Assembly (NCBI GenBank): GCA_051531975.1
Contig: JAOPTT010000021.1
Span: forward strand, 1-33,733
Reading direction: 5' to 3'
Length of the DNA: 33,733 bases
DNA from: Spirochaetaceae bacterium
GTDB lineage: Bacteria > Spirochaetota > Spirochaetia > DSM-2461
Below the pieces are notes generated by a model. That model saw only the letters and a program-made list of their open reading frames with translations, was not told the DNA's origin and did not search any database. The position numbers were made by a program, and so were the translations under genes. This document shows positions 14,067 through 33,733 of this stretch, in pieces. Each line of letters begins with the position of its first letter. Within the stretch, counting starts at the first letter, position 1.

Positions 14067-16388
14067 TTATCTCGATTTCCGATAATCCCCTGGGCTTACT
14101 CCAAAATTCTTTTTAAATGCTTTGTAAAAAGTAGTCTGAATAGCATAACCCGATTCCAATGAAATATCTTTAATATGTTTATAACTTTCATCTTTCAGTT
14201 GCATTACGGCATGATCCATACGGATTTTCTCAAGGTATTGATGAAAACTAATTCCATAATATTCCTTAAAAAGTTTAAAAATATAATTTCCTGTTATCCC
14301 TAATTCCTGTCCTACATGATCAGCAGACAGAAAAGGATTAGTAAAGTTATTGTCAATGTATGTGCATAGGTCCTGTACCATTTTTGCTTTACGATCATTT
14401 TTAACAGTGTTTTTTTGGTCAACCAGCCTGTTTAGAATCTCTTTATGTTTATTAAAATATTCCATGTAATTATTTATAGTGATATTTACATTGACAACGT
14501 CTCTAATAGACGAATCTAATTTATCATCGTTAAAAACCACCCTTTTTGTTATACTGATAAGGATACCTGTCATGGATATCAAAAGAATTTTAATCAATGA
14601 AAAAGAAATTTTGTTTTCAACGAAGTTTTTTAGATATATTTCATCTAAAATCATCTTTAGAGCTATTTCATCACCTGAAATGACGCTGTTTATCAGTTTC
14701 CTTTCAAAATCAACAGGATAATACAGAGGATATGAGTCTTCATCTTCTTTTACAGACCATGAAATGCCTTTATCTGTTTCCAGATTATGTGTATCCCGTA
14801 TGATAGACGCTTGCTCAAAGGAGTAGTGAATATCGTTTATTAATTGCACACCAGAACCCACAGAGATCTTTGTTTCAGAAAAATTCTCAGTTGATATTCT
14901 GGTATAAAGCGATTCAACAAAAGACTTCAACTGTTCATCCTTTATAAAAGAAGCATCCTGTTTTATTAATATTATTTCACTGGGGTTACGGTCATAAAGA
15001 TATATATTTTCCCCCGGCAGTTGTTTTTTCATTATTAATTTTATATGAGATTTCCAGAGGGCTATTTCTCCGATTTCATCGGAACGGGTGATTTTTGAAT
15101 CTGAAATTAAACTGAGTATGATTACAGTATATCTATTTGCATCTATGTCGAGGCAGGAATTAATAACTTCTTTTCTCTCTTCCTCATGGATATGATATCC
15201 TGTAAGCAGCTTTTTGATAACTGTCGATTCAAGCAGTTCCGTCTGTTCCTCTAGATAATCTGTCATTCTGTGAACACTAAAATTGAAAGTGGAGAACAGT
15301 CCTTTGGGATTATTATGTTTCCCTTTGTCTTCACCGTAGAGAATAAGCCGTTCCTGAAACTCAAGATACATTTCATTTACCGGCTTGCTGTTCTGATAAA
15401 CTATTATAAATGAGAAAACCAATCCCAGGAGTATGAGAGAGGACATTATAGATATCAGAAAGTATCGGATTTTTTTTGTCTGATCCCTCAGATATTTTTT
15501 TGATTGAATAACGACATATCTGTAAGGCTGGTTAGGACTGCCGTTTTCTGTTACAAACCATTTGGAGTTCTCTTTGAAAACATCGAGATCCGATTTAGTT
15601 AATACCGAGTTGGATAATAAAGTTTCAAATCGATTCCCCGTTGCCGTTCCAAATTGAATATTATTATCTTTATCGAGAACAAATACACATCCCTCATTGG
15701 ATATATCCAATTTTTTAAGTGTTTTAATCAATGCATTTTTATCTATATATATAACTATAACTCCGCTTTGCTCGCTATAGGAACTACCAAAATCCTGGAT
15801 CATGCCCATTCTATAGGTGAAGTGTGATACTTTGTTATCTGGATTCAAGTCGATTAAAGAAACGATATTAGCAAAAGTATTTCTGTCAAAAGTTTGATTG
15901 TAAAAAAAATTAAAGGCTTCATTTATTTTGTCATCATGAAATCTGAGGGCGTATTTCAGATATGTTTCCAAAGGAAGAGATAATTCGTAGTTCAGTATAA
16001 CCGCAGGTGATTTGATTAGTACAAAATAATCGAGAATATAATCATGACTAATTCCCGATGGAACCAGGCTTTTTTTTACATCGATATCAAATAGTTCTTT
16101 TGACATCGACTGCTTGTTCATATCCTCTAAATCTACGGAAAAGTTAAAGGAAGAGGAAACATAACTAAGATGGGAAAAGAGTTTTTTCGAGTCTACAAAC
16201 AAGGTAGCCATGGATTCCTCGACTTCTTCAAGCAGGAAATGGTTTTTTTGTTTTATTTGATTTTCCGCAAGTTTTAAAGATTGATAATATAGTACACCAC
16301 CCATTAGCCAGAGCAGTAAAATCAGAATTAAATATGGTAAAAACAAAGTTGCAAAAATTCCGTAATAAGATTTTTTTCGATTAATCAT
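14067..16388 (-). CDS. Membrane-anchored one-component AraC-family regulator (Bacillus YtdP/YesS-like architecture)
   Basis: Two TM helices flanking a ~270-aa extracytoplasmic sensor; YYPVDFERKLIN motif; C-terminal AraC HTH (YIFKLFKEYYGISFHQYL...FYKAFKKNFGVSPGDYR); 773 aa; divergent from the ABC operon. Confidence 0.9.
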   Translation of the reverse strand: MINRKKSYYGIFATLFLPYLILILLLWLMGGVLYYQSLKLAENQIKQKNHFLLEEVEESMATLFVDSKKLFSHLSYVSSSFNFSVDLEDMNKQSMSKELFDIDVKKSLVPSGISHDYILDYFVLIKSPAVILNYELSLPLETYLKYALRFHDDKINEAFNFFYNQTFDRNTFANIVSLIDLNPDNKVSHFTYRMGMIQDFGSSYSEQSGVIVIYIDKNALIKTLKKLDISNEGCVFVLDKDNNIQFGTATGNRFETLLSNSVLTKSDLDVFKENSKWFVTENGSPNQPYRYVVIQSKKYLRDQTKKIRYFLISIMSSLILLGLVFSFIIVYQNSKPVNEMYLEFQERLILYGEDKGKHNNPKGLFSTFNFSVHRMTDYLEEQTELLESTVIKKLLTGYHIHEEERKEVINSCLDIDANRYTVIILSLISDSKITRSDEIGEIALWKSHIKLIMKKQLPGENIYLYDRNPSEIILIKQDASFIKDEQLKSFVESLYTRISTENFSETKISVGSGVQLINDIHYSFEQASIIRDTHNLETDKGISWSVKEDEDSYPLYYPVDFERKLINSVISGDEIALKMILDEIYLKNFVENKISFSLIKILLISMTGILISITKRVVFNDDKLDSSIRDVVNVNITINNYMEYFNKHKEILNRLVDQKNTVKNDRKAKMVQDLCTYIDNNFTNPFLSADHVGQELGITGNYIFKLFKEYYGISFHQYLEKIRMDHAVMQLKDESYKHIKDISLESGYAIQTTFYKAFKKNFGVSPGDYRKSR

Positions 16389-29072: not shown

Positions 29073-30611
29073 ATGATTACATCTATTTCAAAAAAACAAA
29101 ATATTTTACTAATCATGAGTGATCAGCATAATGCCAATGCCATCGGTTATACAGGGAATTCCGAGGTTAAAACACCTAACCTTGATAGCCTGGCTGCAGA
29201 TGGGGTAACTTTCTCCAATGCATTTTGTAATAACCCTATTTGCGCTCCAACTCGGACTAGTTTTATTACAGGTCAATATGTTCATACTCACGGTTTAGGT
29301 GGTAATGATAACCGATCTCTATCTAAGTCAAATGAGTATACCCTTGGCAGTGTTATTAAAAATAACGGTTATGAAACTGCTTTCATAGGTAAATCCCATA
29401 CAGTTCCCAAATGGGATAAAGAAAGTTATGACTTCCTCAAATATAACGGATTTTGTGATGCAGACTATGACGATCCATTGACCTGTCACTATCTTAAGTA
29501 TCTGCATGATCATAATCTTAGTAATTATTGTGTGGAAGGTACTGAAAACAAAAAGGGATTTCCCGAAGCGTTTAATGGCTCAGCCCCTTTTGATTTAGCT
29601 GATGAACACTCTGTGGAACACTATACCGGAGAGATGACTCTGGATTTTTTAAAAAACCGTGATGATTCAAAACCCTTTTTTGTAACTACTAGTTTTTTAC
29701 GTCCCCACGATCCTTATACACCTTCATCAGAATATTTTGGAATGTATGATCCAAACAAAATTACTCTTCCTGAAAATATGACGGATTCCAGTGAGGGATT
29801 TACAGGTAAACCTAGATATATGCAAAACCAAGCCAAAAAATCCTTTAAAATCATGGATGATGAGATTAATCGTTTTGCATTTACACAAAATTCAAGTGAT
29901 CCCCTGAAAAGAGTAGTTGCCAGTTATTATGGCCTTATCAGTGCCAATGATTATGAAATAGGCAGAATTATAGATTATTTAAAAGAGATTGGGGAGTATG
30001 AAAATACTATTATTGTATATACCTCAGATCATGGAGATTTTGCAGGAGAACATGGATTGATGGGGAAGTGTTTCAGTATCTACGATGCCATTCACCGTAT
30101 CCCGTTTATTATAAAGTATCCCGGTTGCCAGAAAGGGCAAACCTGTGAAAATATTATCGAATCAATTGATCTCTACCCCACTCTGGCTAAGCTGATAGGT
30201 ATATCGGTACCTGATTTTGTAGATGGCATTTCATTTATTGCCGATGGTAGGTTAGTGGATAATAAAGATGAAGCTTATTGTGAAGCAAATAATATTTGTG
30301 CTGTACGAACCCAAGATTATCGGCTCATTTATCATAATGGGTATACTCATGAACTTTATGATTACACAAACGATCCCGGTGAACTTTTTAATGTGTATAA
30401 CCATCCTGACTATAATGAAATTCAAACAACACTCTATAAAAAATTAAATCAAAATAGTTATATAGTCAAAGATACAGAGGATCATAGTAATTCTCTTACA
30501 ACTCTTATTCATAAAAAAGGGTATTTCTACTCAGAAATAATTAATAAAAAACCAGGAGAAACTACACCTCTCAATAATAGTATTCCATTAGAAATAGAAG
30601 GATTAGTATGA
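29073..30611 (+). CDS. Formylglycine-dependent sulfatase (S1, Cys-type), cytoplasmic
   Basis: LLIMSDQH, CAPTR (CxPxR), GKSH, PHDP, SDHGD, ELYD...DPGE; no signal peptide. Confidence 0.92.
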   Translation: MITSISKKQNILLIMSDQHNANAIGYTGNSEVKTPNLDSLAADGVTFSNAFCNNPICAPTRTSFITGQYVHTHGLGGNDNRSLSKSNEYTLGSVIKNNGYETAFIGKSHTVPKWDKESYDFLKYNGFCDADYDDPLTCHYLKYLHDHNLSNYCVEGTENKKGFPEAFNGSAPFDLADEHSVEHYTGEMTLDFLKNRDDSKPFFVTTSFLRPHDPYTPSSEYFGMYDPNKITLPENMTDSSEGFTGKPRYMQNQAKKSFKIMDDEINRFAFTQNSSDPLKRVVASYYGLISANDYEIGRIIDYLKEIGEYENTIIVYTSDHGDFAGEHGLMGKCFSIYDAIHRIPFIIKYPGCQKGQTCENIIESIDLYPTLAKLIGISVPDFVDGISFIADGRLVDNKDEAYCEANNICAVRTQDYRLIYHNGYTHELYDYTNDPGELFNVYNHPDYNEIQTTLYKKLNQNSYIVKDTEDHSNSLTTLIHKKGYFYSEIINKKPGETTPLNNSIPLEIEGLV

Positions 30612-32722
30612 CGATAACATTAACCAATAACCAGATACAGTATCAGTTGTATACCGAATCAGAAAAAGCATTAAAAAGGATATTATTAAAAATAACCGAT
30701 GAGAAAGGAATTCATGGACCCTTTCCTATGACAGACTGGGAAAAAATTGATAATCCTACAGCAGTTCTTAATGAAAACTGTTTGTTTTTGGCATGGGAAT
30801 TGTATGAGGATAATTGCCGAATTCAATTTACTAAACTAAATTTAAAGACATTAGTAAACGTCGAAAGTATTTTTGAAGCGGGAAAAAATAGATATAATCT
30901 GACAGGCATTGAGGAAAGGTGCTACAGGCCACGATTGAGTGTCTCCTGTGGTAATTTACTTCTCTGTTATGAGCAGTTTTATGAAAAACAATACATTATC
31001 AATGGTAAATTGTATCAGAATGGTACATTTTCAGGGCCCTTTGAACTTGGATCGGAAAAAGGTAATAATCAAGAACCATGGCTTACACCTACAGAAGATG
31101 GATATATACTTTCTTATGAAAATTCCAGTCCTCTTTATAAAGACTATGTCTGGAGAAATTCTAAAGGAAATGAAGTAATTATTCCCGCCTTTGGACACGG
31201 TTGGCGGGTTGAAACACGGTCGTTTCTTAAATATCTTGAAGTTATAGAAGATAGCCTTACTACCTCTGTATTGGAACAACCCATCGGTAATTCCGATTCT
31301 CGAGGCTTTATCCCTCTTGATGGAAAAGAGTCCTCCGGCTGTCCAATAATACTTACACTCCCGGACAGTTCCCTTATGGTTTTGTTCTGCAGCTACATAG
31401 AGAAGGTCTGGCATATATGCTATTCCTTTTACAGAGAAAATTATTGGTCTTCCGCATTTGACACAGGCTTAATAACAAAACTGAGAACTACTCCAGAGGC
31501 ACGTCTTGGGCAAGAAGGTGATTTTGTTGAAGTTTTTCCAGGTCCAGACAGTCCAAACTCACAAAACTCAGTCAAAATACGTTCAAAAGTAGGAAACTCT
31601 AACTCATCATTACCTGGAAAATCAATTTATATGGATCAAAAACTTTGTCCTCTTTTTATGGGTATTCAACTAAAAAAATCCAGCAGAGAGTTGGAATATA
31701 AAGGTGAAAAGAGAAAATTACTCTGGGGAGATCTTCATATGCATACCAATATCTCATCATGCAGTTTACATGCGAAGTTTCATTGTAGTGAGTTGGAAGA
31801 GAAATACCGTCAATGCCATGATGTAGGACAATTAGATTTTGCTATGGTTACGGATCATGACAGAATGTCCGATTCTGAATGGCAACGTACAGTAGAAGTC
31901 GCTGATTTCAATAACCGTCCTAGAGTTTTTACAGCCTTTCAGGGCTTTGAGTGGACTGCTACTGAAGGTGGAATACCTAAACAGGGACATTATAATGTTT
32001 TATATAAAGATACGGGGCGTTTATACCGCTTAAAAGAAGATGATGGATCACATATTACTAAGCTCTGGGAGGATATGGTTGAAGGGGAAGTTCTGACTAT
32101 TCCTCATCATCCAGCAGATGAAACCCATATGCTGGACTGGAACTTTTTTGACCCTCGTTTTGAACCCCTTGTGGAAATTTTCCAGGTTCGAGGTTCCTAT
32201 GAATACCCAGGTAACTCTATGGACCCTTCACTATACCGGCCTGAAAAGATGGTAAAGGGAGCCAGCATTTTAGAAGCTCTTGAAAAGGGTTATGAATTTG
32301 GTTTTACTTCTGGAGGTGAGCATGAAGGTGTAGGAACTACAGCTGTATTTGCAACAGAAAATACCCGGGAAGCTATATTTGAAGCATTATGTAATCGTCA
32401 TGTCTTCGGAACCACTGGAGATCATATATATTTAGATTTCCGGGTCAACGGTGTACTCATGGGTGGTGTGATTTCTGACCCAGTCACTGTTCCTGAAATC
32501 ACGATGACTATAAATGGAACTGCTGCAATTAAAGAGTTACGAATTATGAGGGATGGAAAAAAGGTTTTCTCCAGGAGTTTTGAGGAAAAGGATGTTGAGT
32601 TAACCTGGGTGGACGAAGATTTTGTTAACATAATAAATAGCCGTCAGGTTCATTATTACTACATGGTAGTTGAGCAGGTAAATAATGAAATTGCTTGGGC
32701 AAGTCCTGTTTTTATAAAGTGA
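30608..32722 (+). CDS. PHP-fold metallohydrolase (DUF3604/CehA-McbA-like) with an uncharacterised N-terminal half
   Basis: WGDLHMHT, VTDHD, GFEWT, GHYNV, IPHH, VEIFQ, GFTSGGEH, AWASPVF; start overlaps the sulfatase stop. Confidence 0.8.
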   Translation: MTITLTNNQIQYQLYTESEKALKRILLKITDEKGIHGPFPMTDWEKIDNPTAVLNENCLFLAWELYEDNCRIQFTKLNLKTLVNVESIFEAGKNRYNLTGIEERCYRPRLSVSCGNLLLCYEQFYEKQYIINGKLYQNGTFSGPFELGSEKGNNQEPWLTPTEDGYILSYENSSPLYKDYVWRNSKGNEVIIPAFGHGWRVETRSFLKYLEVIEDSLTTSVLEQPIGNSDSRGFIPLDGKESSGCPIILTLPDSSLMVLFCSYIEKVWHICYSFYRENYWSSAFDTGLITKLRTTPEARLGQEGDFVEVFPGPDSPNSQNSVKIRSKVGNSNSSLPGKSIYMDQKLCPLFMGIQLKKSSRELEYKGEKRKLLWGDLHMHTNISSCSLHAKFHCSELEEKYRQCHDVGQLDFAMVTDHDRMSDSEWQRTVEVADFNNRPRVFTAFQGFEWTATEGGIPKQGHYNVLYKDTGRLYRLKEDDGSHITKLWEDMVEGEVLTIPHHPADETHMLDWNFFDPRFEPLVEIFQVRGSYEYPGNSMDPSLYRPEKMVKGASILEALEKGYEFGFTSGGEHEGVGTTAVFATENTREAIFEALCNRHVFGTTGDHIYLDFRVNGVLMGGVISDPVTVPEITMTINGTAAIKELRIMRDGKKVFSRSFEEKDVELTWVDEDFVNIINSRQVHYYYMVVEQVNNEIAWASPVFIK

Positions 32723-32803
32723 AGTTCTTTCAACAGCAACTATATAGACCAAAGTCATTTTTAACAGCACAAACTGACCGAATAGATCAGGGAAAATAAG
32801 ATA

Positions 32804-32950
32804 ATGCAAATGAATAACTATTTGATTGATGATCTGGTATCATTTTATATGAAAATATTAATGAAAAAAGGATTTTCTAAGTTTAGAGTTGAGAAAATTG
32901 CCCGTGTTCAGGTGGAAATTCAGGCTTTTGCCATAAAAACCCACGGCTGA
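32804..32950 (+). pseudogene. N-terminal fragment of an Ldh_2-family (malate/L-lactate/sulfolactate dehydrogenase-like) oxidoreductase
   Basis: 48 codons, MQMNNYLIDDLVSFYMKILMKKGFSKFRVEKIARVQVEIQAFAIKTHG*, matching the family's N-terminal helices and (S/T)HG motif, then a stop. Confidence 0.6.
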
Positions 32951-33104
32951 AGTTCGAGCATCCCAATATGACTTACTGCACCGGAATCGATTATTTAATA
33001 ATATTATTTGAATAATTTTCATTATCAAAAACTTTACAATTTTAAATTATGGTCTAAACTTGGTATATAATTAGTATATAAAAACTGCATATAAGGAAAT
33101 AAAA

Positions 33105-33371
33105 GTGAAAAGCAATAACTTTTGCCAAAGTTGTGGATATCCATTAAATAAGGATAAAAAAGGAGGAGGAACAGAAAAAGATGGGTCAATAAGTAAAACT
33201 TACTGCTCTATGTGTTATAATGACGGATCATTTTTATCTCCTCCGGAAGTAAACAGTGCTAAAAAAATGCAGGATTTTTGCATCCAAGAGATGAAAAAAG
33301 ACGGTATGAATGGATTATTAGCCTGGATTTTAACCAGAAGTATACCAAAACTTGAAAGATGGACTACATAA
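33105..33371 (+). CDS. Zinc-ribbon domain protein (Zn_ribbon_2-like)
   Basis: FCQSCGYP...GTEKDGS.S..YCSMCY.DG.F...LERW; GTG start with AAGGA RBS. Confidence 0.88.
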   Translation: MKSNNFCQSCGYPLNKDKKGGGTEKDGSISKTYCSMCYNDGSFLSPPEVNSAKKMQDFCIQEMKKDGMNGLLAWILTRSIPKLERWTT

Positions 33372-33396
33372 TATATTAGAATTATTGTTATAAACT

Positions 33397-33454
33397 AAAA
33401 AAACCAATCCTTTGAAATATATTTTAGTTATAAAATTATTTCAAAGGATTGGTT
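33397..33454 (-). terminator. Long hairpin terminator (U tract on minus strand; may be bidirectional)
   Basis: Perfect 18-bp inverted repeat AACCAATCCTTTGAAATA (33402-33419) / TATTTCAAAGGATTGGTT (33437-33454), plus an inner 6-bp stem; A run to the left. Confidence 0.75.
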
Positions 33455-33488
33455 CTGTATATCTAGACAGTTTAAAACTGAAATTAAT

Positions 33489-33614
33489 AAAAAAAAGTCT
33501 AGCTGTTGACCCCCAACGCAAAGCAGTTTGCCTTGGGCCTACTCTCCCACTAACACTATACTTTTCGATGAGAAAATGTATAGCCACTTCTCGACGAGAG
33601 AATGTTTGACTATC
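33489..33614 (-). ncRNA. Candidate structured non-coding RNA of unknown family
   Basis: GC-enriched non-coding stretch with three hairpins (two are near-duplicates with a compensatory pair), a short closing helix and a 3' U8 tract on the minus strand. Confidence 0.5.
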
Positions 33615-33733
33615 TTAATGCTTAGTTTAAATATTCGAAGATAATTAATTGGGTACACGATGGTACGGAGTTAGTGTTATGATAAATTGGGTTTGTATTA
33701 ATCAGAATCGATTATAAATAAAAAAAGTCTAGC

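Follow-up and report, generated by a model that had tools for sequence, protein, structure and literature searches.

A tandem repeat carrying pieces of 5S rRNA and a covarying hairpin module in a genus of Spirochaetaceae

The closest described counterparts of the element that concerns us here are the tRNA-linked repeats (TLRs) of Escherichia coli. According to the passages that Stenum et al. [quoted passage not shown] In the same passages rrA, rrB and rrF lie between the terminators T1 and T2 of rrnA, rrnB and rrnD, arise through read-through transcription and are bound in vitro by Hfq and CsrA, their function still being unclear. Here we analyse an array of comparable layout in the Spirochaetaceae, at one end of a 33,733-nt stretch of DNA (the window, which is the whole of contig C21 of assembly GCA_051531975.1, our G000), where a preliminary description had picked out positions 33489-33614 as a candidate structured RNA with twin hairpins. 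The array is a real, lineage-specific variant of a known and unexplained type of element, and it is not a new structured RNA gene; more tentatively, we lean towards the view that the stretch belongs to a 5S-linked repeat whose arrays of 165-231-bp units form the trailer of rRNA operons in this genus.

The resemblance to the TLRs, judged on the sequences at hand, is one of architecture. As in the published passages on E. coli, the units of G001 (a near-complete relative of the same genus, in two contigs) stand directly downstream of a stable-RNA gene and inside its operon, one to several in tandem per locus (1-4 in G001, at least 1-3 in G000); the last part of a unit copies the 3′ end of the RNA encoded upstream (26-31 nt in the short-form units of G001); the whole appears to be bracketed by a first, leaky stop and a final, strong terminator; and at most a marginal function has been assigned to either. 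The sequences themselves are not similar, and Rfam, RtT (RF00391) included, gives no match either at the gathering score or at E<=10. As far as those passages describe the TLRs, the units here also differ in adding an antisense 5S segment and dispersed hairpin-repeat modules, in the splitting of the 5S copy in the window's unit, where a 34-nt insert separates 5S nt 81-97 from the last 7 nt, and in setting, with arrays at >=6 operons, no RNase E/G found and CsrA encoded. The hairpin loops carry no conserved GGA motif, and a CsrA sponge like RrB was considered but for that reason set aside. A second point of comparison is the dual terminator of rRNA operons (rrnB T1/T2, as outlined in PMC8144298), which shares with our arrays repeated stop signals past 5S, here in the form of unit terminator tails and a strong hairpin at the far end; unlike such terminators, the unit ends have no proper GC stem by the U-run, and the units are far longer than a terminator.

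Tandem units behind 5S genes

Read on the minus strand, window 33489-33719 makes up a single unit, of 231 bp, in a diverged tandem array, and the final 15 bases of the contig repeat the GCTAGAC plus T-run with which the stretch ends. In G000 as a whole (29 contigs with 58 ends, 98.5% complete), BLAST finds other copies of the unit at five places only, with 72-90% identity and all at contig ends, so that six of the 58 ends are array sites: the end of C1, the start of C16, the ends of C17 and C21 and the starts of C22 and C27. All six present the same downstream end of an array, with at least 1-3 units of 165-231 bp per contig end and a hairpin terminator closing each, and since these downstream ends all fall at contig ends, the upstream side must be another multi-copy sequence that the assembler did not resolve. 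These arrays are missed by Tandem Repeats Finder (TRF), the units being too diverged. In G001, six of the eight 5S genes have homologous units of 185-220 bp directly behind them, one to four per gene and in the same orientation, which begin right after the T-run of the gene. The operon-type 5S of G001 ends in ...GTTAGTGGGAGAGTAGGTGATCGCTAGAC plus T7-8, and all of the units end like 5S, either with its uninterrupted last 26-31 nt or with a hairpin inserted after GTAGG. The units are collinear with 5S, and the minus strand of the window is thus the 5S sense strand, which is the strand that the preliminary description had favoured. The six arrays of G000 would most simply be the tails of at least six unassembled rRNA operons.

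What the units share can be counted across 17 complete examples (5 from G000, 11 from G001 and 1 from G003, which together with G002 brings the species of the genus compared to four). They regenerate the 5S 3′ end, as nt 81-97 and/or the last 7-26 nt, followed by a T-run/ATTTATAA tail; the short-form units of G001 end with AGTGGGAGAGTAGGTGATCGCTAGAC, as 5S does, and are identical to the 5S end over 26-31 nt, while those of G000 retain only about 12 nt of it. The 5S 84-97 block is found in 13/17, as is a 19-mer antisense to 5S, whose distance from the unit start is always 41-46 nt (the three type-B units of G001 have a shifted version of it), and at least one bulged hairpin is present in 16/17. 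G003 contributes one short unit only, with a diverged 5S block, a hairpin and a T-run. Outside these shared blocks the units of G000 and G001 do not align. In the window's own unit (Table 1) the end at 33489..33503 is 14/14 identical to the G001 5S end plus tail, and the GCTAGAC plus T-run string at 33719..33733 is also the one that ends the operon-type 5S genes of G001. Taken together, the parts that the unit shares with 5S cover 17 nt of loop D, helix IV and loop E, the final 7 nt of helix I and nt 69-87 as an antisense copy; the unit differs from 5S rRNA (RF00001) in having neither helices II-III nor the loop-E 5′ strand, and RF00001 gave no match to it at any threshold used (33300-33733, down to E<=10). 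A 5S mimic with both loop-E strands was considered and set aside, the sense GATGGTAC being present in G001 type-A units only.

Table 1. Features of the repeat unit and its surroundings in the window (minus strand = 5S sense)
Feature	Position	Strand	Remarks
Complete repeat unit	33489..33719	-	Last unit of the array in 5S sense; bounded by two GCTAGAC + T-run copies
GCTAGAC + T7 + A	33719..33733	-	3′ end of the preceding element (a further unit or an operon 5S); contig stops here
Anti-5S segment	33658..33676	+	Copy of 5S nt 69-87 (17/19); unit nt 44-62, antisense in the unit's sense RNA
Sigma-70-like TTGACT-18-AATATT (9/12)	33606..33635	+	Antisense to 5S; -35 overlaps hairpin outer stem
Hairpin module, truncated outer stem	33582..33609	-	First twin in 5S sense (33586-33605 of the preliminary description)
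Hairpin module, full 6+5-bp stem	33556..33583	-	Bulged A, loop TCATC; the twin at 33560-33579; model R1 42.9 bits, E 4e-5
GTTAGTGGGAGAGTAGG	33538..33554	-	Exact 17/17 copy of 5S nt 81-97: loop D, helix IV 3′ strand, loop E 3′ strand; unit nt 166-182
Third hairpin	33512..33537	-	Inserted directly after GTAGG; species-specific
GCTAGAC + T8	33489..33503	-	Last 7 nt of operon-type 5S + terminator-type T-run; unit nt 217-230
Long AT-rich hairpin, then T7	33402..33454	-	Closes the array; faces the convergent Zn-ribbon gene 33105-33371

The preliminary description had read the stretch as a discrete minus-strand gene of ~125 nt for a small RNA (sRNA) or protein-binding RNA, with two equivalent hairpin sites joined to a third hairpin in a multi-stem junction, and much of what it saw is there. 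The U8 tail corresponds to A8 at 33489-33496 and is a copy of the 5S terminator tail; the GAGUA strand that it called loop-E-like is a literal copy of the loop-E 3′ strand of 5S rRNA; and the third hairpin is present at 33512-33537 as CCCAA-C-GCAAA/GCAG/TTTGC-C-TTGGG, with a 1x1 internal mismatch. Its closing helix is there too, as AGTC 33496-33499 and GACT 33609-33612, but does not covary and takes another register in G001: there are 4 bp in G000, 3-4 bp in G001 type-B units and a CTAG(T)/(G)CTAG register in type A, the lack of covariation following from a 3′ strand that is fixed 5S sequence. Rfam has no family at the locus at either threshold. At the gathering score, the whole window and nine contig-end or small-contig loci yielded only a tRNA and a 16S fragment, and at E<=10 the region 33300-33733 yielded only weak miRNA-type matches, from the AT-rich hairpin 33402-33454.

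The idea of a discrete gene fares less well, and we consider it very unlikely. It can draw on the missing Rfam match, on hairpins that do covary (see below), on a unit that ends in a U-run and on the E. coli RrB, which the passages in PMC8144298 offer as a precedent for a trailer repeat acting as a protein-binding sRNA; a sigma-70-like TTCGAA-16-TAAGAT, picked out by eye, would even put a start near AGTC. That site gave no match in the promoter scan and is not conserved in G001. The stretch is the 3′ two-thirds of a 231-bp tandem-repeat unit, that is, of an array unit behind 5S and not of a separate gene, and its closing helix is short (3-5 bp), variable in register and without covariation. 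The twins and the third hairpin occur together in the window's unit alone, 1/17 of the complete units, and the number of hairpin modules varies (two in 2/17, none in 1/17); the multi-stem junction thus belongs to this unit alone and does not characterise the family. Hairpins follow GTAGG in three species with unrelated sequences (CTAATTG-CACTG-CAATTAG in G001, CTAGCTGC-GTAA-GCAGGTAG in G003), and the third hairpin is missing from 6/11 units and unit fragments in G000 and from 3/11 units in G001 and is decayed in terminal units. Folding energy selects neither strand, since the 132-nt stretch folds somewhat better than shuffled sequence on both, with similar z-scores (-2.65 on the minus and -3.38 on the plus strand). 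Small open reading frames of 38-65 amino acids run across the unit; coding was rejected for these, the frame not being kept by the 26-27-nt module indels and by blocks absent between units.

A covarying hairpin module dispersed in the genome

The twin hairpins are two tandem copies of a bulged hairpin module of 26-28 nt. Read from the letters, ACTTTTCGATGAGAAAATGT (33560-33579) and ACTTCTCGACGAGAGAATGT (33586-33605) are 17/20 identical, as had been reported, and differ at positions 5, 10 and 15, of which 5 pairs with 15 (T-A against C-G) and 10 lies in the loop; each retains one bulged base, T on the plus and A on the minus strand. Further copies were located in G000 by structure-based scanning and a motif search, and the covariation that the preliminary description had seen in two copies holds in an alignment of 30 (29 of them distinct; one row, C16_88k, is misregistered and contributes noise only). 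Both sides change in 9/11 pairs, 87.9% of cells are paired, and the bulged base is retained in all 30. Cells with a double change number 38, against 9.0 +/- 2.5 after shuffling, a figure that 0/500 shuffles reach, and slid registers all score far lower. Stem wobbles are G-U on the expected transcribed strand in 4/5 assignable copies, too few to weigh much.

A covariance model of the module (R1) finds 29 copies in G000, 12 of them in the six contig-end arrays and 17 elsewhere. In G001 it finds 21, of which 15 are in 5S trailers, 1 is in a leader and 5 are weak matches ~3.4 kb upstream of 5S genes, probably inside 23S; in G002 and G003 it finds none. The modules inspected are all intergenic or in spacers of rRNA and tRNA operons. 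On C25 there are three to four per spacer in a tRNA-Asn operon, and three lie between tRNA-Ser genes on C13; C2 has an array after a terminator (27 nt x 5.9) as well as two solitary, unit-like copies, C16 has another array, and the G001 leader copy sits in a 16S leader ~125 nt past predicted tandem rRNA promoters. Within tandem arrays the outer stem is shortened to two pairs, with the junction ...AAGTGG..., and the window twin has the same junction: that of module 33582..33609, ...GAGAAGTGG(C), is the one found inside the 27-nt arrays at C2:161937-162108. At this last place (L067 238-408), six tandem 27-nt modules lie between the terminator of one gene and the next gene, with no promoter-like site between. 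The C25 locus (14280-14950, L070) is a tandem tRNA-Asn(GTT) operon with ~140-nt spacers, part of which reads N; the spacers consist of 3-4 copies of a 32-39-nt repeat with either the hairpin module or the half-motif only. In G001, at C1 ~1270950-1271050, in the tail of the array that follows the 5S gene 1271738-1271846, the loop of one module holds a second hairpin with GATC on both sides, which looks like an insertion event.

Repetitive extragenic palindromic (REP) elements are extragenic imperfect palindromes of 20-40 nt, present in hundreds of copies, with a GTAG/CGTC tag and a REP-associated tyrosine transposase (RAYT) of the Y1/IS200-like kind. Our module behaves like a member of a small REP/BOX-like repeat family of this genome. 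It shares with REP elements and bacterial interspersed mosaic elements (BIMEs) of enterobacteria and with BOX elements of pneumococci the short imperfect palindrome, the preserved irregularity and the compensatory stem changes, and like them it is extragenic, often just after terminators, in both orientations and in tandem clusters of variable number. It differs from them in that its copies number only in the tens (the 29 and 21 above), in that its arrays are direct 26-27-nt repeats and not alternating pairs, and in its strong bias to stable-RNA operons. The aligned modules have no GTAG/CGTC tag beside them (the GTAGG that precedes the third hairpin comes from 5S), and a RAYT/Y1 transposase was not found in G000 (PF01797, 0 matches).

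Transcription of the array and what a trailer might do

Transcription of the array by read-through, stops or trimming at the unit ends and any role for the RNA are matters that we infer from the arrangement of the parts. A polymerase passing the weak terminator formed by 5S helix I and the U-run would transcribe the array, each unit of which would then offer another 5S end and terminator tail, and with it a further place to stop or trim, until a strong hairpin terminator ended transcription at the far end. The hairpin modules might fold in such a transcript as stable punctuation or as barriers to exonucleases, in either orientation. The unit tails carry TTTTT[AG]TTTATAA, which they share with many intrinsic terminators genome-wide and which is enriched in G000 (52 copies, most of them behind GC hairpins; the reversed control gives 18); this holds for the strict form only, a loose terminator-tail pattern not being enriched (655 vs 891). 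The AT-rich hairpin 33402..33454 is left unscored by a simple terminator scan, and the equivalent hairpin after the C17 array is scored. Among sequencing runs, one DNA run yields the stretch as short contigs, and neither a second DNA run nor the small metatranscriptome of the same sample yields it, a result that does not bear on expression.

A number of observations weigh against such a trailer, and they should be set out together. The link between array and 5S in G000 is drawn from the structure of contig ends, the rRNA operons being unassembled, and the sole Rfam-level 5S in that genome is an orphan gene at C22:5737-5845. Under a simple rule (GC-rich stem plus T-run), intrinsic terminators at unit ends number 0, and the closing helix of a unit has only 3-5 bp. 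RNase E/G (PF10150) and RNase M5 (TIGR00334) were not found in G000, so that the E. coli processing route is not simply transferable; RNase III and CsrA are encoded. The module in 5S trailers is oriented opposite to the copies in tRNA-operon spacers and the 16S leader, which makes a single strand-specific function of the RNA unlikely. Degenerate copies in tRNA spacers keep the half-motif GAGAAAATGTTT without hairpin potential, which hints at recognition of the sequence, and compensatory changes in a DNA palindrome could arise by template switching, without selection on an RNA. Finally, two G001 type-B units contain TTGACA-16-TATAAT (12/12) directed against the rRNA operon, with the -35 in the outer stem of the hairpin.

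Another possibility is that the modules are protein-binding sites at the level of DNA, operators or upstream elements of stable-RNA-type promoters that in the trailers would lie upstream of an antisense promoter. The preliminary description had itself named operators as an alternative. The GTTTGAC end of the module overlaps the -35 both in the 12/12 sites of the two type-B units and in 9/12 sites in G000 units (two C17 units have TTGACT-16-TAAACT, 9/12, at the homologous place); an order of module and then downstream transcription is common to the tRNA-Asn and tRNA-Ser spacers; and the degenerate copies do retain one half-site only. We nevertheless think this explanation improbable. The half-sites covary instead of converging on one consensus, and the homologous antisense promoter site is absent from type-A units, the commonest in G001. 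The tRNA-Asn cluster has a single strong promoter, ahead of its first tRNA, and one terminator after it, which places the modules inside transcribed spacers; the G001 leader copy is likewise ~125 nt downstream of the predicted rRNA promoters, and no promoter follows the six-copy C2 array. By an estimate from base frequencies, chance alone should also produce about a dozen 12/12 matches in 3.7 Mb of DNA with this composition.

Beyond the trailer as such, a bolder reading would have it decide the fate of unterminated 5S precursors, and this we regard as a long shot. The anti-5S segment could capture nt 69-87 of the 5S in a 17-20-bp duplex, a plausible substrate for RNase III, and farther on the unit would supply a spare 5S 3′ strand and a terminator tail; alternatively, units set free from the transcript might themselves serve as anti-5S RNAs. 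When the 5S of G001 is folded with its first unit, the predicted minimum-free-energy structure (-98 kcal/mol, z -4.96, 0/100 shuffles) has a 20-bp anti-5S duplex, with the 5S 5′ end paired to the unit tail. Within the unit itself, long-range pairing of the anti-5S piece with the 5S block was considered and rejected as a conserved feature: such a helix is predicted for the window's unit and, by eye, is not kept in G001 type-A units or in C17 unit 2.

Distribution, significance and neighbouring repeats

In a DNA search of 41 genomes the unit was found in G000 and G001 only; G002, G003 and G022 match the 5S end and its flank only. In the other four genera of the comparison it is present at 0/26 5S loci (19 genomes), and a metagenome scan with a 17-mer common to G000 and G001 units gave the unit context in 0/80 of the stretches inspected, out of 115. 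In the literature on TLRs and on repeats downstream of 5S we found no such arrays outside enterobacteria. Two genomes of another genus have degenerate copies of the 5S 3′ half with terminators of their own, in G024 400-600 nt past 5S (L057) and in G042 ~255 nt past 5S (L054); the copy in G024 is interrupted by other small repeats.

A further possibility is that the arrays are simply neutral or selfish DNA, scars left where copies of the 5S 3′ end repeatedly underwent unequal or inverted recombination, later invaded by the hairpin repeat and transcribed only incidentally. We think this unlikely. In its favour, only two of the four species in the genus have the family; units range from 0 to 4 and hairpins from 0 to 2, and the presence of the 5S block and of the third hairpin varies just as freely; terminal units are decayed; 5S 3′-half duplications recur, as in the two g4 genomes with unrelated degenerate copies past 5S; one G001 hairpin has taken a second hairpin into its loop between GATC repeats; and the long-range pairing of anti-5S piece and 5S block shows no compensation by eye. 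On the other side, the bulge is kept in all 30 copies despite double substitutions in the stem, where palindrome correction should erase it, and the anti-5S piece, the hairpin and the 5S tail can still be matched between G000 and G001, where nothing else in the unit aligns. A transposase of the REP-associated type was not found in G000, nor a relative of the unit in phage or plasmid collections.

The array is of interest for several reasons. As an independent, sequence-unrelated instance of the TLR layout in another phylum, it shows that this layout arises repeatedly. Six or more rRNA operons have it, its modules (anti-5S piece, covarying hairpin, 5S tail) are clearly defined, and it could serve as a second system for asking whether such trailers act in termination, in the quality control of precursors or as small RNAs. 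In addition, the array would explain why this assembly breaks at the edges of rRNA operons, and it carries a caution for those who look for new RNAs, since a covarying hairpin beside a stable-RNA gene may turn out to be a repeat module where a new RNA gene had been suspected.

Several smaller features lie in the neighbourhood of the arrays and of 5S. The orphan 5S of C22 (L010 1501-1609) has a TTGACT-17-TTTAAT site of its own and a helix I of GTCAG...CTGGCT, against GTCTAG...CTAGAC in the operon type, and orphan-type 5S genes are also found in G001 (3375353-3375461) and G002 (L018). About 80 nt past the orphan gene, at L010 1688-1996 (C22), there is a tandem repeat of 64 nt x ~4 with 71-79% matches (TRF), unrelated to the 5S-linked units. 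The genes beside the array in the window (29073-33371) encode a sulfatase (PF00884), a 704-aa DUF3604 protein and a convergent 88-aa Zn_ribbon_2 protein, and they are unrelated to the repeat. Lastly, a 24-nt repeat, GACGATCCCTCCTTTTGTCGGTGG, forms GATTCC...GGAATC hairpins in 2.9 copies at L006 1384-1452 (C17) and recurs at C1 243400-243480, at C27 270-460 and, as one copy, after the orphan 5S; in several arrays it sits between the last unit and the closing terminator.

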